From: Octopus vulgaris
Taxonomy: Eukaryota
Length of the DNA stretch: 64,000 bases
Assembly (NCBI GenBank): GCA_951406725.2
Contig: OX597815.1
Location: 55,800,001 to 55,864,000, forward strand
Reading direction: 5' to 3'
Shown in pieces: positions 5,240 to 61,932 of the stretch. The first letter of the stretch is position 1; each line of letters begins with the position of its first letter. Below the pieces are notes generated by a model, which saw only the letters and a list, made by a program, of their open reading frames with translations, had not been told where the DNA came from and made no database searches. A program made the position numbers and the translations under genes.

Positions 5240-5303
5240 TGGCGTTGTGGTTAAGAGCGCGGGCTACTAACCCCAAGATTCTGAGTTCGATTCTAGGCAG
5301 TGA

Positions 5304-5389
<86 letters not shown>

Positions 5390-5404
5390 TTAATGATGAT
5401 GATG

Positions 5405-5453
<49 letters not shown>

Positions 5454-5618
5454 TAATAATAATAACAACAACTGCTACATCGAAAAATACCTTAGGAATG
5501 AGAACCTAGGTTCAAAATTTCCCCAAGACACCTGATGAAGGCTGGAGGGTACATCAGCCGAAACGTTGTGTTAACAACAAACAAGATGAGGACAAATATC
5601 CGCCAAATGTAAATAATG

Positions 5619-5620
<2 letters not shown>
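5240..5620 (+). mobile_element. tRNA-derived SINE with internal (AAT)n tract and 3' hammerhead ribozyme, copy 1
   Basis: Box A-like tggcgttgtgg, anticodon-like stem-loop ggg-ctactaa-ccc, box B gttcgattc, then (AAT)n, then a body near-identical to 22679-22997. Confidence 0.8.
5527..5572 (+). ncRNA. Minimal type I hammerhead ribozyme
   Basis: Stem I gacac/gtgtt, core CTGATGA (+A), stem II ggctg/cagcc, GAAAC, palindromic stem III aacgtt, cleavage triplet GUU. Confidence 0.8.
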
Positions 5621-5717
<97 letters not shown>

Positions 5718-9993: not shown

Positions 9994-11581
9994 CAGTTGC
10001 GGCCAAAATGTTCAGAACAGCATTGTTTTCGTCAGAAAAGTAAGTATAAGTTTTTATCAAAGTAGTTTTATATTCTATAATTTTCACAGACAATAAATAC
10101 AATATTAATTGTTATTGTCTGAGATTTTGGTGTAATTTGAGAGGATAATACAAATGTTATGGATGATTTAGTGATTTACTGCAAAACCCATGGCGGCCAA
10201 AATGATCAGAACGGTTGAAAAAATAACAAAATAATAAAAAATGACAGAGAATACTGGAATTATTTAATATTTAGTGTGAAGCCCTTTAGCTTCAATCACA
10301 CTCTGACATCTTTGACTGCATGAGGAAATTAAATTTTCAATTTCTTGCTGGGTGATCTTATTCCATTCTTCCTGAAGGGCATTCCATAATTGCTCAGTTG
10401 TTTTAGAATTTCTGGCTTTCGAACGTTCTCCTAGAATATTCCATACATTTTCAATAGGATTGAGATCTGGGCTTTGAGCAGGCCAATCCATAACAATAAC
10501 CTTTTCAGCCTTGAGGAAGTTCATGACCACCTTAGCCTTGTGACATGGGGCATTGTCCTCCATGAATATGGGTGGTCGCTTAGTTGAATTTCTCAGCACA
10601 GGCAAGACATGATCTTTTATAAGTTGTTTATAAACTCCTGCATTTACCTTTCCTGTAATCGCACCAAAGAGCCCACACCATCTCCAGATATCATCCCCCA
10701 AACCATGACACTTCCTCCACCGAATTTAACACTAGTCTTAAGGCATTTTGGCGACAATTTTTCACCTACTATTCTACGAAACTTAGATTCATCACTGAAA
10801 TGCACCGTTTGCCATTTTTCTTGAGACCACAACACATGTTTGGTTGCAAAGGTAAGACGACACCTTTTATTCTTGGAGCTGATCAGTGGCTTCACTGCAG
10901 GTGTTCTTGCTTGTAGGTCATGTTCAACTAAACGACGAGACACAGTTTTTCGAGATAAAGTTTTCTTCAATACAATGCTCATTTTCCGAGAAACAGCAGC
11001 AGCAGTTTTAAATCTGTCCTTTTTAACCAACTTTACCATAGCACGATCTTCTCTCTTGGTCGTTTTTCTTGGCCTACCTGTAAACTTTCTTGCTTCACAC
11101 GAACCACAATCATCGTAGACCTTAAGTGTACAACACTTTTTGACTTGTTAACAATCTTTGCAATAGATCCAATACTTATATTATCCTTCCTTCGAAGCTT
11201 AATAATCTGCTGACGAATTGGTAACGGAGTAAGTGGCATTATATTAACAAAGTACACTGCAAATATTCTTACTAATGTTTAGTAAACGAACCGTCACGTA
11301 AACAAATTCAAAACATTAGAGTTCGCCGGTTAAATATACTAGAACACGGAGTAAAAGCAACCGTTCTGATCATTTTGGCCGCCATGGGTTTTGCAGTAAA
11401 TCCCTAAATCATCCATAACTTTTGTATTATTCTCTCAAATTACACTAAAATCTCAGGCAATAACAAATAATATCGTATTTATTGTCTGTGAAAATTATAG
11501 AATATAAAACAACTTTGATAAAAAATTATATCCACTGTTCTGACGAAAACAATGCCGTTCTAAACATTTTGGCCGCCACTG
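9994..11581 (-). mobile_element. Tc1-family DNA transposon, IR/DR type, full length and defective
   Basis: ~224 bp TIRs (9994-10217 / 11358-11581) starting CAGT; each carries outer and inner direct repeats ggccaaaatg(t/a)tcagaac; TA on both flanks. Confidence 0.95.
10264..11239 (-). pseudogene. Tc1 DD34E transposase, frameshifted
   Basis: Three overlapping ORFs give an HTH N-terminus, VHFSDESKF, KFGGGSVMVWG, FMEDNAPCH and SPDLNPIENVW. Confidence 0.92.
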
Positions 11582-12248: not shown

Positions 12249-15185
12249 TTTATAGGATCATTCTTAAAGTGGTTTCGTCACTTACGCGTACCATCTTTGC
12301 TACATTCACCCACCTTTTATTGAAACTTTTATGCGACAAAACTTCCCTCTCTATTCTCACCTTCCTTTTCAAGTGGCACTTGAAAAGTTGATGAGCGATT
12401 GGCCAGAGAGGAAAGTGTTTGTCTCTAGACCTTTCGCACGAGCCCACCACACACATTCTTTCACAATAGCCACCAGTGCAATGAAAACTACCTTGCCTTC
12501 CCGGTTAAAGGAAGGTGGCGGGGCAATATTCACGATAGACTCGGCCGATAACCGAATTCATCCTATACGTGACAGCAGCCGTTCGACATAAGCCCACAGG
12601 TCTGAAATGGTTGGACACTGCGCGAATGCGTGCAGAACGGTTTCGTCGCTCTGACCGCATCTCGGGCAAGTCAATCCGATGTACCTGGAACCGTACCTGT
12701 AGAGCTTATCCCGAACGGGCAATGCTTTCCGATAGCACTGCCAGGCCAGGGATCTCTGATGATTGTCCATAGGTCCCGGCCAAAAAGTTGTCCTCAAGAG
12801 GCGAGTCAGGTGTTCGCCGTCGATACCCAAATACTCCCAAGAACGTCGTCGCACCTTACCTCCATTAATCCTCTATAGAACGCCTTCATGGAATTGAAGT
12901 TGCACAAGTCTGGTCCCGGACAGCAGAGTTGCTTGAGAGCAAAGCGGCATTCGCGGTGTCATTCTCTGTTTGATCTATGACTGCAGTTCGGCCAAAGAGA
13001 CGAGCTGCGGGAAGCGCGCCTCACAAACGGCAACCTGTCATCTATGAAGTGCTGGAGATGTCGCAGTCTCAAGGCATGTCTGCATATCATCAACCACGGC
13101 ATGCCCAGCCCTCCATTTAGCGGGTGTTGATAGCAAATGGATCACCTAACTATGATAATGCTTCCCTTCCACAAAAAGCGAAATAGCATGCGTTCCAGCT
13201 TGATGATGCTAGGGTGGAGACAAGATACGACGGTCAGGCGGTTATAGATGACGGACACGATGTACGTGTTCGCTACCTCTGCCCGACCTTTTAGGGATAG
13301 CTTTCTCTCGGCCCATTGCTAGGTAAGAGTGGCCATCCTACTCGTTATCTCGTCCCAGTTCTCCATTTGGAGGTCCGGTCCGAACCAGAACCCGAGCAAA
13401 TTAACCGGTCTGTCGGTCCAGTGTCCCACGATGGAGACGCTGTTGGACGGCATGGGCCTGCCTCTCCAGGTACCGAGCCGCAAGCCCACTGACTTTTCCG
13501 AGTTAATTTTCGCTCTCGTTATCGCTTCGTATTCTTTTAGTGTCTCGCCGAACAGTTCAATATGCCTGTGGATCGACACTATGACGGTGACGTCGTCCGT
13601 GTAGGCAGACACGTTTCTCTCGCATCCCAGTTCTCGCGGGATGCCCCTCGGTGTCACCAGCTTCGGCAGTAGTGGCTCTAGAGTCAATACCTACAGAAGC
13701 GACGAGAGGGAACATCCTTGACAGACCGAACGCATGATGTTAAATGGTCTGGATAGATGACCATTTACGCGAACTACCGAGCGGATGCCGCTGTATAAGG
13801 CAGTGATCCAACCGCGGAAGACGGGACCGAAACTAGCCGCTCTAAAGGCAGCCTCCAAGTAGCGATGGTCGACCCTACCAAAAGCTTTCGATTCATCCAA
13901 ATTGTTCAGCACCCCAACCATGCCATGTTCCTTAACTATCTTGTCAATGATGTAACGCATCAGATGGAGTTTGTCATGGCTACACCTGCTAGGTATGGCG
14001 CATGTTTGCGCCTTGTCGACCAGTTTCTTGATAGGAAGCGCCAACCTCCTGGCTAGCACCTTGGCTAAAATCTTCAAATCTGCGTTGAGCAGAGTGATGG
14101 GCCTGAAGTTATCTATGCCGTTCCCCTTGTTTGGATCTTTCTTTAGCAGTTTTGGCTCACAAAACTGGGGATACTCCCGTTTTGCTGTCAGTTGCAGTAG
14201 ACTGCTGCCAAGACACCTCCAAACAAGTCAGGCATATGACAATAAAGCTCGTAGGGCAGACCATCCAAGCCTGGCAACTTGTCTCCTGCGCAGCCTGCCA
14301 TCGCATCCCGTACGTCCGCGGCTGTGATGGGTCTTTCACAACACTCCGCCTCTCTTGCCGAGAGTCGTGGCAGGCCATGCACATATGCACTAAAGTCCAC
14401 GCTGCGTTCTGACCAACCACTTGTCCCGAACAGTCGGGAAAAGTGCTGTTGAAAGGCCTCCCACATCCTTTCGGGCTCGAGTAATTCGCGCCCCTGTCCA
14501 TCTGTCAGAGACCTAATGGTGTCTTTGTTGCCTCGTTGCGCCTCCACCACTCGGGCCTCTAGGGCGACTCCAATTCCTTTGTTTCTCAGAGTATGCATCC
14601 TAGCTCTGACAACGCATCCTTAGTGTTTGGCGTTGAAGTATTGGTCGTGGGCCAACCTCGCCGCTAGCACGTTGGACGCGATGCCATGTTTATGTGCCTC
14701 TTCAAATTTCTGAACTAAGCCTTTCTCTATTCAATTTCGATCTATCGCTAGAGCCTTACTATACCTAACCGATTCCGCTTTAATCGCTTTCTTTAGGGCA
14801 TACCACCATCTATTGTTGATGATGGCGCCCGTCAATATCCTCTTAACTAATGTGCTAATCCGGTCTCTGTAAGCCTGGCGCGCCGTGAGCGACGCGTTCA
14901 GTTTCCAATAGCCGGGACGCTGCCTATGGTTCGTGTACAAGTCACAAATTTGTGATCTATGTAGCTGACTATATGGAATTGTGGACAACCTACACTATCC
15001 CTACCCGCTGTCCTCTATCTAAATACGACCTGGACGACTCGATACTTTTGCTCTGTGTCCACATTGGCACATTCGGGCGGTCCAGTCGGTACCTGTCAGA
15101 CAGTTGGGAACGTCTGAGCAGGTCTTAGAGGCATTTACATCTCCTCCTATTCCTATCTCTACCCACATAGTCTACATAGGGTCAT
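11960..15185 (-). mobile_element. Tx1/L1-clade non-LTR retrotransposon ORF2 (APE C-terminus, RT, zf-RVT) plus 3' UTR, disrupted
   Basis: SRSYLD, GYWKLNASL, PGLDGLPYELY, KILAKVLARRL, QGCSLS, SAYTDD and CPRCGQSDETVLHAFAQC; AATAAA then (TATC)n at the 3' end. Confidence 0.9.
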
Positions 15186-17114: not shown

Positions 17115-18400
17115 TCAGGCTGAGTAAAAAGCAAGCAACGTTTTGAAACATGTAATTCATCAATATATTTCAACAATGCCGACATTTTATTCATCAAAGA
17201 AAGTACCATTACAATCAACACCTTTTTACCAATGAGTTACAAGTCTGTTTATTCCGGTAACATAAAAATCTGGAGTTCTGGAGCTGATGAACTCTTTGAA
17301 TGCACTTTCAGCATCGGTTTGATTTTTGAACTCCTTTTCTCGCAGAAAACCTTCAAGGTGCTTGAAAAAGTAGTAGTTGGAAGGAAAAAGATCCGGGAAT
17401 AAGCTGGGTGGGGAAGAATTTCGTAGCCGAGTTCCCTCAACTTCTGGAGCGTCATTAGTGAAACGTGTGGTTTAGTATTGTTATGAAGAATGGTTGGCCC
17501 TATTCTGTTGACCAGTCTGGGACGGAAGAGTAACAGTTTTTCGATCATTTTGGCAATTTCATAGCAATATGTTTCTGCAGTAATGGTTTTTCAGGGTTTT
17601 AAGAAGTCATACTGGATGAGTCCAACAGTACACTATCAAACAGTCGCCATAACCTTCTTTTTGAAGAGGTTGGGTTTAGAGAAGGTTTTCGGTGCTTTAT
17701 TTTGGTCCAACCACTGCGAAGAACGTTTTTTTTCCTTATTGTACTGAATCTACTTTTCATCGCAAGTTATCGAGAAATGGATCGGTCTGGTTACGGAAAA
17801 GCGACGAGCAAATTTCATATTTTTTTTATTTACTGACTTTCATTCGAATCGTGTGGTACCCATTTGTCGAGCTTTTTTGATTACCCAATCGCATGCAAAC
17901 GGTTGCAGGGAGTTTTCTGGCTAACTTGAAGTTCTTTTTTACCAGTTCTCGAGTAGTTTTGCGTGGATCTTTCTCAATGATGGTTTTTAATTGGCCGTCA
18001 TCGATGACAGATGGGCGTCCACTACGGTCACGATCTTCAAAGCTCAGGTCTCCACTGCGAAATCGTTCAAACCATTTTCGAGCTGACCACTCACTGATCA
18101 TTTCCTCACCAAATGTTACATTGATATTGCAAGCAGTTTTAGCTGCTTTATGTCTTTTTTTGAAGTTAAATAGCAAAATTGCTCGAATATCGCGTTTTGA
18201 TAGTACCATTTAAGATGATTATAACAACAGGGAAAAATATCAATGTTAATTTATTGATGCATTTGGGCAAGTCTATGTCTGTATTATCAGACAATTGCAA
18301 AAAATGTTTTAAGCCCCCCTCCAAAAAAAAAAACTCTGCAAAAATCCGGTACAAATTCTTTATGGTTCAAAACGTTGCTTACTTTTTACTCAACTTTTGA
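17115..18400 (-). mobile_element. mariner DNA transposon, ~1.29 kb, defective
   Basis: TIRs tcaggctgagtaaaaagcaagcaacgttttgaa / ttcaaaacgttgcttactttttactcaacttttga, TA flanks, typical mariner size. Confidence 0.93.
17190..18209 (-). pseudogene. mariner (DD34D-type) transposase, frameshifted
   Basis: HTH WFERFRSGDLSFEDRDRSGRP, WVPH motif, LHNNTKPH and ILPHPAYS. Confidence 0.9.
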
Positions 18401-18619
18401 TATATATATACACACACGCGCGCGTTAATTATCGGACGATGTGAATGAGTGCTCAACACCGCATTGGAAGGTAAAGATTCTTTATTTGTGTATTAAGGTT
18501 ACCATTGGCTTCATGTTAAGAAAATATCTCCACAATTCTTCAAGCCGATCACATAGAAAAATTGGTGTTCATTTCCAAAGTAAAAACAAATGGCGTTCAA
18601 AATTTACGACAGCTGTATC

Positions 18620-18848
18620 GGTAGAATTTTATTTAATGCAGTCATAAAATTTTACATCATAATAGACACTCCACCATCATCAGGTAAAATTTTAAACAGG
18701 CAAGATTTTAACCATCTGCTAACCAAGCTAAAGTTGGCTATGTCCGGCTCAGGCTTAAAATCTTACTAGTTTAAAATTTTACCTGATGATAGTGTATTGT
18801 ATGTTATGATGTAATCTTTTATGACTGAATTAGATAAAATTCAACTGC
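18620..18848. repeat. Imperfect inverted repeat with ~90 bp arms
   Basis: cagtcataaaa...atcatcaggtaaaattttaaac versus gtttaaaattttacctgatgat...ttttatgactg. Confidence 0.75.
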
Positions 18849-19030
18849 TATTTGAGTTTACTTTTTATGCGTACGCTACACCAACGACAAACCTCTGAGT
18901 CGAATCTATAGCTATAAATTAGATCTGGTACTTGCATATCAACGGCATCGTGCCACCACCACCACCACCACCACCACACACACACAAACACATCCACACG
19001 CACATATATATATACTTTACATATATATAC

Positions 19031-19536
19031 TTTTTTCGCGAAAAAAAATTTATCCTACATTAGTTATAAATTGAATATTGTTCACTTCCGGATTCTGTCA
19101 CTCTGTGAAAGTTTCTAGTTCGAATCACACGTGTCTCGAGATGTGCCGAAGATTTTCTATTTTGGATATATTTGGGGTACTTAGGTCTGCTCGGGACTTG
19201 GTGCTTGCTTTTTCCGTAGGTATGAATAAGTATTTCACTTATATCTCAAGTATTTGCCGCTGAAGAGGGGAACATTCTATGAATTAACCCCGAAATTGGA
19301 CCAATACGGTGATAAATAATTTTTTAGAAATTTCTATCGGTTTGTTTCGAGACGCATAAATTATAATGGTTATTTGACAATTTTTGTCTTTCTTTCGGCA
19401 TATTTGGCATTAGAATTTTTTTTTTGCCCTTATTTTGTAAATTGTTTATAAATTTAACCTTTAAAGGTATTTTTTGATATGCTGGCCATTGATTAAAATT
19501 TTTTCCCGAAAAAATTTTTATCCTACATTAGTTATA
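19031..19536 (+). mobile_element. Retrozyme-like unit (~468 nt) with ~38 bp terminal redundancy and a central HHR
   Basis: Direct repeat ...gaaaaaa..tttatcctacattagttata at 19031-19068 and 19499-19536; flanked by (TA)n. Confidence 0.65.
19251..19318 (+). ncRNA. Type I hammerhead ribozyme, canonical core
   Basis: Stem I ttgccg/cggtga, CTGAAGA, stem II gggg/cccc, GAAA, stem III attgg-a-ccaat, triplet AUA. Confidence 0.85.
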
Positions 19537-19544
19537 TATATATA

Positions 19545-21581
19545 TAATCAAAATAAGCAACAGGATATCAAGTAGTGATGCAGTACCACCGTTTAAAGTG
19601 GCTCCATTTAATTGAACAATGCAATCATTACATCAATTTAAATGCCATCTTCAGATGCACAAATAAATATATAGGATTTTAACCAGTAGGACACATTAAT
19701 ATGATTTTTCTCAAATATTTTAATAGAGCAAGAAGATGAAGAAATTCATGTTGTCGCTATTATAGCTAAGAATAGACTACACTTCCAAGAATCGCATGAA
19801 GCCTATTGGGATCATAGTATCGTAAGGGATTGTAATTAGTTTCTAATTTACTTTTCTCTTTATCAACTACTAAATCTAAGACCAGAAGACTGTGTCTGTT
19901 TTGAATAAAGGACAAGAGTGAGTTAAAAGCTCATGACTAGGTATGGTCATACATATTATCATATATATCCCTTTTCCTCAGGGAGGAAAGAAGATATTAG
20001 GAATAGTCAATTGGATATAAGTGTCTATAAAAAGATGTGTAGGGGAATACTTTAAACAATGATGTTAATTACCAGTTAAAAGGGCAAGACGCTAAGAAAC
20101 CTAAGATGTTAATACAGAGGAAATTTTATTTTGGAGCACTATGGGTGATTGCTTATAAACAATATTGTTATATCGTATAAAAATAACATTTAAGATTTTA
20201 AAAAAAACATCATAACCAAAATAGGTAAAATATTAAAAAAGAAAGATTACATAGAATCAGTTTAACATTCATTCATGTACATAATTACTTATTCGACAGT
20301 TTCTATAAAGGCTGCTCAGGGCATTTACTTATGGAATAACTGGAAAGATAAACATGCTATCTATTATTATTAATCAGAAAAATGTAAAGATGCATGCAGA
20401 TACACATTTATATATATACATACTCAAATATTTATACGTTTATATGGATATAGTATAACCATCTCGCATAGACTTAAGTAACTGAAAAATATCTAAGAAC
20501 AAGGAAAGTAACAATTTATAAGGGAGAAGATGTTAATAGATAAGGATATCAAAATAAGAAAACAAAATAAGAATCTATAGAAAATAATAAGAAATACATA
20601 TGATCTACATTCAAAGAGACGGTGGATTAAAATTTGAGGTAGGGAAGAGATAAAGGTAACCTGAAAAGAGGTATGGAAGTAATGAGGGCAGTTAAAGATA
20701 TTCAGACCGAAGAGATTTTCTAAGTTGTAATGTTACAGGTGCTATTGTATGTATGATTTTATAGTTTCTATGGCATATGTAATTTAGTCGAAAGAAGACT
20801 TACTTACATAAAGTTACTACAAATATATATAATATAATTAGTAGGGTAGAACATCATAGAAAGGAAAATAGGGTAATCACCAAAATAGGATGAAGTCAGA
20901 CTAACTAGGCAGGGGTTATCATGGTATAGTATTATATATAGCACACTACATACCATAAACATATAGCTTATAACATATGCAATGAAATTTAATTCACCAT
21001 ATCACCATATCCCATGATTTTATTATATTTTATGCTAGAGGGTAAGTTTACAACGGATACGACATTAATTTCCACCATCAAAGTTCAAGTATGGCACCTA
21101 TAATCGTTAGTTTCGAAAATACTTAAATGTTTGGGTGACGCTATGCATGCATGATACCCTTAGGTCTAATCTATCATTAATTAGGTTTCCTTGTCCCTAT
21201 ACTTAAAAATCTCATAAGTTTTCATAGAGCACAGCTCATCCATATCTCTATAAGGCTGCGCTCTCCGTATTATATCCAATTCAAGACTAAATTTAATCCC
21301 GCTTTCCTTCAGTTCCCAAATCTTGCTAGATAAGGACGTACAATTGGCTAAAAGATGAAAAAATGGTTATTGATACGTTCTTTCATATTTATTGAACATC
21401 CTATATATATAAAGTTACCAGCATCAGTTACAATTGTACATTTACAAATTACGTTTTCGATTAGACATCGGCCTAATAACAGACAGTAAGATTGAACTAT
21501 AAAATTGCAACCAGGAGTATTACTACTATTAATATTGTTATTGTTATTTTCATTATCATTATTATTCTTACTACTACAACA

Positions 21582-21944: not shown

Positions 21945-22670
21945 GCTAGCATCCCTGGACTTAATAATAACACGCACCAAATATGGATTCAGGACATCCG
22001 TATACCGCAAGCCGACCTTCACTGGATGATACCTTAACTTCAATTCCCACCATCCATACGGTGTAAAGAGAGGAATTGCTCAGTGCCTAAAACATCGAGC
22101 AAAGAATATAAGTAGCGAGCGTGATACCCACCACGAAGAAATAATCAAGTTCAGTAACAATCTATTAAGCAGCAACTACTCCAAAAACATACTATCTACT
22201 CCAATTATGAAGAAAAGAGAGGATAAAACCTATAAACTGTCTACAGTCTATCTATCCTATATGAAAGAACTCTCCGAAAAGATACAAAAGATATGCGGCC
22301 CATATGACATCAGGACAGTATTCAAGAGTAATACAACACTTTGCAAATATCTCCTTCGGGTAAAACCACCAATAGAAGAGAATATGACCAAAAACTGTGT
22401 GTACTCCATCCCATGCAGCTGTGGTAGGTTATACAAAGGAGAAACATGCCACCCCCTCAAAATAAGAGTAGAGGAACATCGCAAAGCTATGACATGAGGA
22501 GATATTGAAAAATCGGGTATAGCTGGGGAGGAAGTTTGGAAAATATGAAAACTAAAAGAAGCAGGACACAACAACCTCCTAAGCAGATCAAGTGCAGATA
22601 TGAATGGCATATGGGAAGCGGTATTAAGGAAGGATAGGAAAATATTAGATTTACAAGCCCTAAAATTCAC
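21945..22670 (+). mobile_element. Penelope-like element fragment: RT thumb plus GIY-YIG endonuclease
   Basis: TSVYRKPTFTG*YLNFNSHHP and NCVYSIPCSCGRLYKGETCHPLKIRVEEH. Confidence 0.88.
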
Positions 22671-22678
22671 TCCATAAT

Positions 22679-22766
22679 TGGCGTAGTGGTTAAGATCGCG
22701 GGCTACTAACCGAGTTCTTTTGGTCGAGTTCGATTCCAGGCAGTGACCTGAATAATAGTAATAACG

Positions 22767-22839
<73 letters not shown>

Positions 22840-22997
22840 CAACAACAACAACATCGAAAAAGACCTTAGGAATGAGAACCCAGGTTCGAAATTTCCCCAA
22901 GACACCTGATGAAGGCTGGAGGGTATATCAGCCGAAACGTTGTGTTAATAACAAACAATATGAGGACAAATATTCGTCAAATGTAAATAATGTAAAT
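22679..22997 (+). mobile_element. tRNA-derived SINE with (AAT)n and 3' hammerhead ribozyme, copy 2
   Basis: Box A TGGCGTAGTGG, box B GTTCGATTCC, (AAT)n, and a body matching 5476-5620. Confidence 0.8.
22901..22946 (+). ncRNA. Minimal type I hammerhead ribozyme
   Basis: gacac CTGATGA a ggctg gagggtatat cagcc GAAAC GTT gtgtt; differs from copy 1 at a single loop II position. Confidence 0.8.
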
Positions 22998-23044
22998 ATG
23001 TATGTATATATTTGTGTATTTATATATGTGTGTATGTGTGTGTT

Positions 23045-39177: not shown

Positions 39178-42090
39178 GATTGATTGATTGATTGATTGAT
39201 TCTAGTTTCAGCTCATGAGCTGTGACCATGCTGGGGCACCGCCATTTGGTGTTGCTACTTGGTTTTACTTCACGAAAGCTTTTTAGCAACTGCCATTTGG
39301 TGTTGCTACATGGTTTTACTTCACAAAAGCTTTTTAGCAACTGCCATTTGGTGTATGAGAGAGTTCGATGCAGCTGCCCTCATCTGCACCTCCTGCCGTG
39401 AAGTTGGTTCATCTGGGACACCCGACAGGAAGAGATCCAGTTTCATTTTAAAGACATCTGCATCCACCCCATGCAGGTCTCTCAGGTTCTTCGGGAGGAT
39501 ATTGAAGAGCTGTGGGCCTCGGAAGCCCAGGCTATCACAGTATCTTGTCCTACATCTTGATGGCAAATTTGGAGTCCTAGGCACCACGCAGTGGCGCCCA
39601 GTTCTGGCATTTGTGTAACTCTCGATGCCAAAGTTTGGGACACGTCCCTCCAGGATCTTCCAGATGTATATTATGGCTTATCTTTCCCGCCTACGCTCTA
39701 AGGAATATAGTTTTAATCCCTTGAGTCTTTCCCAGAAGCTTACATTCTGCATAGAGGCTATCTTCTTCGTGTAGCTACGCTGGATCGCCTCGAGCTCCGT
39801 GATCAACTTGACACTGGATGGTGACCATAACTGAGAGCAATAGTCAAAGTGGCTTAGGACAAGTGTCCTCCAGAGGACCATCATGGTTTCTTGTTCTCTT
39901 GTTCTAAAGGTTCTGAGAATCCATCCGGCCAGTCGTCTACATTTCATTGCCAATTTAGCAACATGTACATGAAAGGTGGCGTCATCACTCATGTAAATAC
40001 CCAGGTCACGCACTGATTGTGCCTCTGGGATTGCTATTCCTCCGGGTCCAGTGTATTCATTGGGTATTGCATTTAGTTTTACATGCTGATAGTATAAAGC
40101 TTGAAACTTTTCAGCATTGAACTGCATGCTATTTTTTTCAGCCCACTTGTATATTTTGTCCAGCTCACATTGCAGGCGTTTAGTGTCCTCAGGGTTCTGT
40201 ATTGCCTGTGAAACTTTTGTATCATCTGCATAACTTGTGATCGTGGCTCTCTGCGTGGCTGAGGGCATGTCTGAGAGGGCCATTATGAACAGTAGTGGTC
40301 CCAGAACAGTGCCCTGCGGAACACCGCTCACTATTTGCGTGTTAATGGAAGTGGCCCCATTGGCTACTACCGCCTGACTGCTATCTTTCAGAAAGTCATG
40401 AAGCCATTCTCCCAGTTTTCCAACTATGTTGAGATCACGCAGTTTGTGACATATCATTCCATGATCGACTTTATCAAAGGCCTTTGCAAAGTCGAGATAT
40501 ATGACTTCCACATTTGAGTGGTTGAGCAGCCGTTTCAGCACCCAGTCATAGTGTTGTAGGAGCTGAGTTAAACAGCTTCTCCCTGGTCGGAAACCATGTT
40601 GGGTGTCGGGCAGCAAGTCATTTTCTTCAAGGAAGGTGATCAGTTTCCTTCTGACTATTCGTTCCATGACCTTGCTGATGTGTGAGGTCAGAGAGATAGG
40701 TCTTTAGTTCTTGGCCTCCGCTCTGCTACCTCCTTTATGAATGGGGCATATTTTACCTTCCTTCAGTTTTCTTGGAAGTTTGCCAGCTGCAAGGAAGCTC
40801 TGAAAGAGGAACTGCAGTGGTCTTGCTAGGACTCTCTTACATGCTTTTAGGAGGATTGCCGGGAATCCATCGGGGCCAGTAGCTGAGTCTGTTTTCATTT
40901 CATCTATAGCCTTGATTACATCGTCTTCCTTTATATCGATGTAATCTATCGTCGCCGCCTCTGATTTTATATCTGCAGTGGTAAAGAAGTCAGTTGGATT
41001 GGTGATTTGGAGATGCCCAAGGGGTGGAGTGAAAACACTCTTGAATTGCTCATTCAGTATTTCACTTACCCTCATTGGTTTTCCTGTAAGTGTGCCATCC
41101 TTTTCAAGGAGTGGCCCTATTCTACAGTGCACCGTAGCTGTTTCTTTGGCATACCTGTAGAAAGCTCTGGGGTTAGATTTTATGTTGTCTATAGCCCAGG
41201 CTTCTTTGTCTGCTCTTTCCTTTTCATGGGAGAGTTGCAGACATTTTTCAATTTCCCACAGTTTTATTTTTAGGCGGGACTTTTCACTGCTTTCAATCTG
41301 TTTGTTTAGACGATTTGAAATTTTTGTACGCCGTCTCATTAAAATTTTCCTCTCTCTGGGGATTTTGTTCTTGTGTACAGTGGCCTTTCTCTCTGGGACA
41401 CATTTGTAGCATATGGCTTGCATTACAGACATGAATTGTTGAAGTTTCACGTCGATGTCTGGCGAGGAGAGACGTTTAGGCCAGTTTTGTTTGAGGATCT
41501 CTTTCTCAATTTGTTTCCAGTTTGCCTTATGGTAGTTCAAGCTGGAAAGATTCTGAGGGTTTCTTGTAGGCTGCATGTCCGTGCTCTCTTTTGGCCCGTA
41601 CATGGTCAGCTCTACCATGTTGTGATCCGAGAGTAGTGTCGGTGTCACTTTCACATTATGGATGAGATCCATGTCATTTGTGAAGCAGAGATCCAGTGTG
41701 TTACCTGCCCTGGTTGGTTGGAGTATTACTTGCTCCATGTACAGGGTGTTGATGAGGTTCAGGAGGGACCTCGCCTGTCCTCGTTCACATCTTGTCATTC
41801 CTGGGAGAGAAAGGCCCTCGGGCCATCTGACATTGGGTAGATTGAAGTCTCCCATAAGAAGTACACTTATGTGTTGTTCTAATGTGATTAGAACTTCTTC
41901 TATTTTTATAAGGCAGTCTTCAAACTTGCCCACATGGCTTGGGGCATCTGGAGGGCGATATGTAGCACACACAACTACATCAAGTTGCCTTATATGTACA
42001 ATTAGTGTGTCACACACCGAGTTTGAGTATGACAAGAGGACCTGGGGTGTGAGGTCCTCACGGATGTACATAGCAACTCCTCCATGATTG
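39178..42090 (-). mobile_element. CR1/L2-group LINE, 5'-truncated and young, with an (AATC)n tail
   Basis: APE motifs (YRPP, LMGDFNLP, LDLCFT, SDH), RT motifs (YLDFAKAFD, GVPQGTVLGP, YADD), C-terminal LYSLERRRER, and a tandem-repeat 3' end. Confidence 0.95.
39321..42090 (-). pseudogene. LINE ORF2 (endonuclease-RT), one frame with two in-frame stops
   Basis: ORFs 40704-42125, 39678-40667 and 39321-39587 share a frame; stops fall at KN*RPISL and RER*AII, where Tyr is expected. Confidence 0.9.
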
Positions 42091-42265
42091 ATCTTTCTAA
42101 ATATTTCATTCCTCAACTTACTCAAGATCTTTTGTTGTTTATAAATGGGAGAGAGATAGATAAAGATAGAGAGTAAGAGAAAGCGAGGGAGAGTCCGAGA
42201 GAAAGGAAGAGTAAGAGAGTGGGGAAAGTGAGAGAGAAAGGAGAGAGAAACAAAGATGGAGAATT

Positions 42266-59845: not shown

Positions 59846-60846
59846 GAATACAGAAAGAAACAAAGAGAGAAAATAAAGAATGTATAGTGGCTAGTGATCT
59901 ATCATGCCGAATGCCTGACAGAGCAGTCACACAGGAGAGCTAGGAAGAAGGGGAGATAATAATGTAGTGGTGATCCCAAAACGAAGGTGCGCGTGCATGT
60001 TTGTAAGAGAGCATTATATGCGTGTGGAAGAGGGCTGGTGACCTTGACGTGTGCGTGTGTGTAGGTGTAGGTGCGTGGATGTGGGGCTGGGAAGTGGTCA
60101 GTACTAGTGTGTGCGTGGTGGTGTGATGTGATGTAATGTGGTGTTGTGTGGTATGATGGTGTATGGTGTAGTGATGTGTAGTGTGGTATGGTGTGATGGT
60201 GTTGGGATGTGGAGGAGGCGAGAGTGGGGAAAGCAAGAGTGGGGTGTGGTTAGGCTGAAGGTGGGGTAGAGACGGTGTATGTGGGAGTGGGTGTAAGGGA
60301 TGGGATGGGGATGGGATGGATAGCGAAGGTGGGGTTGGATTGTGTTGGGGTGGAATTACGAGGGAAGGGTCACGATGAAGAGAGGGGGGAAGGGAGAAGG
60401 TGGGTAGGAGTGAAGAGAAGAGAAAAGGAGAGTAGGAGGGAAGAGAAGAAGTAGGAGTCGGAGCAAGAGAATAAAGGTGGGTGTGAGGTGTGAGAGGGAG
60501 AGAGGAGAGGGGAGGAGAGTTGAGCCAATGTGGCGCAAAGGAGCCTACTATTCTATAAACAAAACAAAAAAGATGTATAACATGTATATACACCTGATAA
60601 AGCATAAAGGCAAGCTGCTTGAAAACCTTCCTCACATATAACTTACATTCTTTATTCTTGAATTTGGCAACTCACCGTTTAACATCTTCATGGCTTTTTC
60701 ATTTCTACCGAATGTCCAAAAGGTAAAAATTGATATCTACTTAGTGAAGTAAAACTGCTTCAAAGCAGTTTTTGAAATTGAATTGTCTATGAAAAAGTTC
60801 TCATTCAACATAGTCATGCTTCAGTCCAAGAACAGTAAGCAAAGAA

Positions 60847-61932
60847 TTGGTGACGCGTATCCTCGATGATGGTGATGCTGTTGACATCGTTTTATTGGAC
60901 TTTACCAAAGCTTTTGACTCGGTTAACCACCGCCTATTACTTGTCAAGCTTCAAGCATATAGTTTCCATCCGGATATTGTACGATGGGTTGGTGCCTTCC
61001 TCTCAGATCGCTCCTTCCAAGTCCAAGTTAATGGTTCGCTGTCCGACGTCTCCAGTGCGAGCAGTGGCGTGCCTCAAGGTTCAATGCTTGGGCCCTTATT
61101 GTTCTTAGTCTTCATAAATGACTTGCCCGACGACCTCACGCAACACACCCTTCTATTTGCCGATGATGTCAAACTGGTCGCTCCTCGCGGTGATATAGAT
61201 ATCTTCGTCGATGCCTCCACCGTCTGCTGCTGGAGAGGACCGACCAGGTAAAGGACCTGGGTATCTTGGTGGATTCTTCCTTTTCGCCTTCGGCCCAGTG
61301 CGTCCATGCTGCCAACAAAGCACGCGGAGTTGTGTTTTTGATTCGACGGTCATTCGGAATGCTCACAGCAGCCATATTCCTACCGCTCTATGTCACGCTG
61401 GTGAGACCCATACTGGAGAACGGGATTCAAGCCTCTTCTCCTTATCTCCTCAAAGACATACATCATCTCGAAAGAGTCCAGAAGCTGGCTACCCGCATGG
61501 TTCTTGATCTCAAGCATTTGTCTTATGAAGAAAGGCTGAAGACGCTCGACCTTTATTCTCTAGAAAAACGACGACGCCGTGGTGATCTCATTCTTGCTCA
61601 CAACATCATAAGCGGAAAGTGTGACCTCTCGAAAGAGTTGTTCTTCACTCCTGCTCCAGAGCGTCGGCTGCGGGGTCATTCCGAAAAGCTCTGTCTACGA
61701 CGATTTCATCTCAATCGAAGGAGAGAGGCTTTCTCCGTCCGGGTTGCGGATCCGTGGAATAAGCTGCCGGACGAGATAGTGAAGATGCCGACGACCGCTC
61801 GGTTCAAAGTCTCCCTTGACCACAAATGGCCTGAACTCTTTGCATGAACACCACCCTGTACGTAACTCCATGTTCCCCTACATGGCCTTGCTTTTTGCTT
61901 TTTGAGCCAAAAAATTAACTTAACTTAACTAA
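60847..61932 (+). mobile_element. CR1/L2-group LINE 3' fragment with an internal deletion and (TTAAC)n tail
   Basis: LDFTKAFD, GVPQGSMLGP, LFADD, then LERVQKLATR...LYSLEKRRRRGDLI...WNKLP. Confidence 0.92.

Follow-up and report, generated by a model that had tools for sequence, protein, structure and literature searches.

Positions 19031..19536 (forward strand) of a 64,000-nucleotide stretch of the Octopus vulgaris genome (assembly GCA_951406725.2, contig OX597815.1, positions 55,800,001 to 55,864,000; the window) carry a predicted non-LTR retrozyme, likely a non-coding passenger copied by a Penelope-type enzyme. The first-pass annotation of the window had proposed a retrozyme-type element here, and the class assignment stands: the 468-nt unit is non-coding, low in GC and multi-copy, with a predicted hammerhead ribozyme, and on the testable features of the class it would work like a non-LTR retrozyme. 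The unit is plainly highly repeated, and contigs from public sequencing runs show a family that is colinear with the copy in the window and joined head to tail, with conservation of the predicted hammerhead fold.

Anatomy of the insertion

The insertion consists of the unit itself (19031..19498) and a tail of 38 nt (19499..19536), the latter being a second copy of the head of the unit (19031..19068). The two copies of this direct repeat are spaced 468 nt apart, are identical at 35 of 38 letters, and match each other within the window with a BLAST E value of 2e-10; this is the terminally redundant unit of ~470 nt that had been described at first pass. Because the final four letters of the repeat merge into (TA)n, the true overlap is 34-38 nt. 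The longest stop-free stretch in the unit is 67 codons, no ORF is present, and the GC content is 32%, i.e. below 50%.

The target site is evident as an interrupted (TA)n on the left (19005..19030) and (TA)5 on the right (19537..19546), a context like the latter being found at 2.0% of window positions; at this one locus no target-site duplication can be discerned within the (TA)n flanks. An inverted repeat across the unit junction (19491..19522) would form a weak hairpin (-5.5 kcal/mol alone), which the predicted fold of all 506 nt lacks. The 5' arm of this inverted repeat includes the place to which the 5' end of the insertion corresponds, and the hairpin is a weak candidate for a start signal of reverse transcription. 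Behind the head of the unit (19085-19140) are short words that resemble Pol II factor sites (ETS-like, E-box) and that could constitute an internal promoter as in the pLTRs of Penelope-like elements (PLEs).

The predicted ribozyme

The unit contains a predicted type I hammerhead ribozyme of extended form (19249..19317, forward strand), recognized by motif, descriptor and family letters, with helices assigned by the usual hammerhead numbering; three helices surround the core, and helix I is the open one. The two strands of helix I (19249..19259 and 19307..19317) form six pairs at the core (19254-59/19307-12, two of them G-U), a 2x2 internal loop and an outer 2 bp (3 bp in the family). The catalytic core CUGANGA (19260..19266, CTGAAGA in the DNA) is followed by helix II (19267..19291, pair probabilities 0.85-0.95), in which four G-C pairs (19267-70/19288-91) continue beyond a 2x2 A-rich internal loop into 4 bp (5 bp in the family) closed by a 3-nt loop. 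The segment 19292..19306 comprises GAAA (19292-95), the palindromic helix III with its 1-nt loop, and the UH site, here AUA, with predicted cleavage 3' of A19306, which leaves 276 nt of the insertion before the cut and 230 nt behind it. Helix III has five pairs (19295-99/19301-05, counting the core A-U pair) and is a perfect palindrome about A19300. The canonical core, the helix II of four G-C pairs, the 5-bp palindromic helix III with a 1-nt loop, and the AUA site named at first pass can all be located in this way.

A strict hammerhead descriptor matched only this site in the window and nothing in 200 dinucleotide-shuffled windows; a relaxed descriptor gave three matches, versus 0.01 per shuffle, the two additional ones being minimal hammerheads with cores at 5532 and 22906. 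The ribozyme of the unit is accordingly the cleanest hammerhead in the window, as the first-pass annotation had it. Rfam did not match the hammerhead at gathering score, and returned no hammerhead among seven matches at E<=10 for 18400-20200. The 78-nt hammerhead motif alone is no better folded than its shuffles (z -0.96); the 468-nt unit is more stable than its shuffles, with z -2.3 as a linear molecule and z -2.6 as a circle (2 of 100).

Helix III would be unfavourable as a hairpin (+1.8 kcal/mol) versus a duplex between two copies (-8.9 kcal/mol), in agreement with the dimer type claimed for it. A 1-nt loop cannot close, so that helix III must be either 4 bp with a 3-nt loop or a two-copy duplex. 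For a circular monomer of the copy in the window, the predicted pair probabilities are only 0.07-0.13 for helix I and 0.23-0.26 for helix III, and its ribozyme is slightly decayed, with a weakened helix I.

A highly repeated family

Part of the unit is present in 20 of the 24 public sequencing runs listed (nine studies, four organism labels). The family was compared by aligning the contigs of four runs (X1, X2, X7 and X10) to 18500-20100 at 80% likeness. X10, perhaps an RNA run, covers the neighbouring repeats as well as the unit. In X1, the summed contig depth is 57,000-774,000 inside the unit versus 229-580 just to its left (18878-18985), and a contig of the single-locus flank has a depth of 46.6; the ratio of summed depth in the unit to that of the single-locus flank contig is 1,200-16,600 in X1 and X2, which is not equal to copy number. 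Summed depth varies 13-fold along the unit and increases 4-5-fold behind the cut site in X1, X2 and X7, in a profile that is not monotonic and from summed contig depths that rank nothing.

The copy in the window differs from the majority letter of the family at five or more positions within the ribozyme, the majority being the same in all four runs. At all five of these differences (among 40 of 374 listed, with (TA)n edges left out), the family letters keep or restore pairing: a compensatory change at 19249/19317 (A-U in the copy, C-G in the family), a wobble made Watson-Crick at 19255/19311 (U-G in the copy, U-A in the family), and mismatches of the copy repaired at 19250/19316 and 19273/19285. 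None of the 40 differences listed of 374 falls in the core. The family ribozyme has a helix I of 6+3 bp and a helix II of 4+5 bp, each around a 2x2 internal loop. Helix lengths of 6 bp (I) and 4 bp (II) are the canonical ones at which loops 1 and 2 touch (PMC4209133); because the family helices next to the core have these lengths, a contact between the two internal loops is a reasonable inference.

Among the joints listed (15 of 115, likewise without (TA)n edges), at least seven are head-to-tail junctions (four in X1, three in X2), with periods of 463-470, and none of the 15 is an empty-site joint. One joint in X1, the shorter side of which measures 35 letters, extends to 19077 or further, nine letters beyond the repeat; over these nine, unit and flank have only three in common. 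This suggests read-through into a second unit, i.e. a true tandem. Most of the seven could come from copies built like 19031..19536. The family copy in the window is a monomer, and no contig in the runs examined spans two ribozymes. A metagenome scan with the core pattern found six loci, none of them unit-like outside the pattern (best E 0.022), and an exact 22-mer of the unit had no matches in prokaryote genomes and viral contigs.

Comparison with retrozymes and hammerhead SINEs

The unit is like metazoan non-LTR retrozymes in being non-coding, low in GC, hundreds of nucleotides long and present in many copies, in having a type I hammerhead with a 6-bp helix I and a 4-bp helix II, and in its head-to-tail junctions and coexistence with PLEs; dispersed monomers such as 19031..19536 are common among them. 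It differs from them in a helix II that carries on beyond an internal loop. At 468 nt it is longer than the units first described, which measured 150-450 bp (Cervera and de la Pena 2020, PMC7229834), yet it lies inside the range of 51-972 bp in a 2026 survey that treats retrozymes as non-autonomous PLE derivatives and gives kinship of retrozymes with PLEs by sequence for Xenopus only (Li et al., bioRxiv 2026.07.22.740005). The copy in the window is a "solo" in the terminology of that survey: unlike retrozymes that are "active" by the two-ribozyme rule, it is a monomer plus 38 nt with one predicted ribozyme and, because it has a single hammerhead, it is unable to release RNA of unit length. Only one of nine Xenopus retrozyme dimers tested was cleaved (bioRxiv 2026.07.22.740005), so activity of the octopus unit cannot be assumed. 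No octopus retrozyme was found in the literature searched, a body of work separate from Repbase, Dfam and the supplements of several retrozyme papers, which may list octopus families; for hammerheads in cephalopods, that literature comprised 25 listed matches of 129, mostly on sharks. For a squid genome, 235 Rfam hammerhead matches are reported (PMC6962438).

A hammerhead SINE transcribed by Pol III was considered and rejected for the unit, which has no A box upstream, a B-box-like word at chance level and nine T-runs, judged by the general Pol III consensus of the A and B boxes; ARAGORN gave no match. The SINE-like hammerhead repeats of Schistosoma are similar in being short repeats with a type I hammerhead, whose multimers are cut to monomers, but are transcribed by Pol III (PMC6765202), whereas the octopus unit lacks such a promoter. 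MRC1 of Chlamydomonas is likewise a short non-coding unit inserted head to tail under a PLE enzyme (PMC8557442); unlike the octopus unit, it has a documented 3' similarity to its autonomous partner, and most Chlamys elements are described as lacking hammerheads (PMC8557442).

Two other elements in the window are SINE-like copies (5240-5625 and 22679-23000, forward strand, 86% column identity), each with a tRNA-like head containing A- and B-box-like words, an (AAT)n tract, and behind it one of the minimal type I hammerheads (cores at 5532 and 22906), ending in (TA)n. Their build is that of a tRNA-head SINE ending in a Penelope-type ribozyme, comparable to the Schistosoma repeats, and they may be of greater novelty than the retrozyme. 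Comparison of the unit with these two hammerhead elements gave no match.

The window in general is AT-rich, and rich in microsatellites and broken transposons, with remains of LINE reverse transcriptases and Tc1/mariner transposases (39678-42263, 13319-14619, 10264-11147 and 17300-18209, reverse strand; 60814-61847, forward strand). A separate high-copy repeat family (19560-20100), whose copies elsewhere are preceded by letters other than those here, starts ~20 nt to the right of the unit. To the left is an inverted repeat with 96-nt arms (18616-18850, 84%), multi-copy in X1, X2, X7 and X10, which is either MITE-like or an inverted truncated copy.

Penelope-like elements as the candidate mobiliser

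PLEs have been put forward as a strong candidate for the mobiliser of retrozymes (PMC7229834). Remains evidently derived from PLEs are present in the same genome as the unit: the window includes a Penelope-type fragment of reverse transcriptase (RT) thumb and GIY-YIG (22030-22497, forward strand), of which the best homolog is from Octopus sinensis (74% identity, E 6e-67), and a homolog search with 22030-22494 gave 176 matches among 187 candidates. This fragment is directly upstream of the SINE-like copy at 22679-23000. A decayed endonuclease-like stretch (21351-21521, reverse strand) has a Cys-rich linker, by eye like that of Hydra or Neptune, and a YIG motif; it scores 0.89 as GIY-YIG in the atlas, a lead only and without a link to the unit, and a search for its homologs found none.

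The insertion resembles non-autonomous PLEs in its 34-38-nt tail and, at the one locus, its microsatellite target without discernible duplication. PLE insertions often bear a tail of 30-40 bp (PMC8557442), which in an anole PLE spans the distance from one internal RT start site to another on uncleaved RNA (PMC11167929); the endonuclease of the latter cuts AT-rich DNA (PMC11167929). By analogy, the terminal redundancy of the octopus insertion is best read as a PLE tail rather than a permutation point fixed by chance. A retrozyme would be compatible with fixed ends, because the PLE-tail mechanism, with its two fixed start sites, predicts them.

The Hydra clade of PLEs would fit best as the mobiliser, judging from helix III geometry, target and core. 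Among 25 Hydra families, 16 combine four pairs in helix III with a 1-nt loop and none has a 5-bp helix III (File S2, PMC8557442), and (TA)n targets are listed for 26 of 27 Hydra families (PMC8557442). Like them, the octopus insertion has a palindromic helix III with a 1-nt loop and a (TA)n target; unlike them, its helix III is of 5 bp instead of 4 and it lacks an RT-endonuclease reading frame. Hydra-1_Obim of Octopus bimaculoides is one of these 16 and has a CUGAAGAG core (PMC8557442), and the CUGAAGAG core is shared by the unit, but helices I and II differ and the ribozyme is 230 nt from the 3' end versus ~35. Octopus Naiads, which are described as lacking canonical hammerheads and as being remnants in cephalopods, also prefer (TA)n (PMC8557442), so such a target is no mark of Hydra alone. 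No autonomous partner that shares sequence with the unit came to light; two of its short motifs, sought as exact matches only, were absent from the Naiad, Chlamys and Hydra consensi in the supplement of PMC8557442. Membership of the unit in the Hydra clade itself was rejected, there being no frame for an RT with a C-terminal GIY-YIG and a CxCX5C linker.

Origin of the insertion and its template

Taken together, the insertion is probably a non-autonomous retroelement that a PLE enzyme put into (TA)n, the 38-nt repeat being its typical tail. Tandem loci would be transcribed into multimers; there, two palindromic helix III strands may form a dimer that excises monomers, and the excised monomers may be ligated to circles. 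The PLE endonuclease would nick (TA)n DNA, and the RT would begin copying at an internal position that is always the same, ~230 nt 3' of the ribozyme cut; the enzyme would belong to a Hydra-clade or other (TA)n-targeting PLE. The template must be longer than a cleaved monomer, because the copy exceeds one unit and spans an intact cut site; a cleaved linear monomer, from which no more than the 230 nt behind the cut could be copied, is ruled out. The 506-nt copy calls for either a circle or a multimer left uncleaved, with the multimer slightly favoured. The copy in the window itself, with one ribozyme and a weakened helix I, is a dead end.

The slightly-more-than-monomer copy recognized by the first-pass annotation is borne out by these 506 nt across an intact predicted cut site. 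Its reading as a circularly permuted product of a circular RNA is unproven, and the PLE tail is the simpler explanation. Rolling reverse transcription of a 468-nt circle with variable start and stop, which would leave copies variously permuted and 38 nt of chance overshoot, is improbable: the overlap falls within the narrow 30-40-bp range of PLE tails, and in the anole PLE studied in vitro ribozyme cleavage was dispensable, the RT copying mainly RNA that had not been processed (PMC11167929). It would account for a copy longer than the unit with the ribozyme in mid-unit, for a unit junction that is conserved in other copies, and for a circular monomer that folds better than its shuffles; circles have moreover been shown for retrozymes of coral, mussel and axolotl and proposed as RT templates (PMC7229834).

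More doubtful still is a rare gutted PLE, in which a deletion brought the head of an autonomous element together with the 3' end that carries its ribozyme and the sequencing depth comes from the long parent. Tandem parents would also give head-to-tail joints, and the depth along the unit varies as noted above, but the deletion point would have to fall between head and ribozyme (19069-19245), and family contigs extend across much of this stretch. One X10 contig bridges 19069-19215 directly, with 27 family letters, and the distances of X1 differences at 19078, 19226 and 19249 from their own contig ends (40, 62 and 85 letters) imply spans of 19038-19118 and 19164-19334. Only 0.01 of the aligned contigs in X1, X2 and X7 continue into unlike sequence, none of the 24 loose ends listed of 1,924 is an unrelated one inside the unit, and the unit has no coding remnant. 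Bridging of the head-to-ribozyme stretch by family contigs argues that the short form itself is repeated. Scarcely credible are readings in which the hammerhead is a passenger, whether of a DNA-level element (Helitron- or MITE-like and with a hairpin at the 3' end) or of a 430-bp insert that made a long target duplication. In their favour are the inverted repeat near the 3' end and retrozyme target duplications that are said to exceed 4 bp; against them, the 38 nt belong to the family, being attached to the unit elsewhere too, and are not host flank, family letters preserve the RNA helices, and the 3' hairpin is not predicted in context.

Implications

Which enzyme mobilises animal retrozymes, and whether from a circular template or not, is an open question in the field (PMC7229834). 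Counting copy ends can test this in a high-copy family that combines a PLE tail and a (TA)n target with a Hydra-like helix III; otherwise, the octopus unit is one more species-specific family of a known retrozyme class. In a bolder and rather unlikely version, the family would consist of circular RNA retroelements, abundant in octopus, on which a Hydra-clade Penelope enzyme starts at a fixed internal point and copies one round plus 38 nt. If so, the Penelope tail would be overshoot on a circular template, the mobiliser of a retrozyme would be named and the circle and PLE-tail models tied together, and the hammerhead would dock two internal loops instead of a loop and a hairpin.
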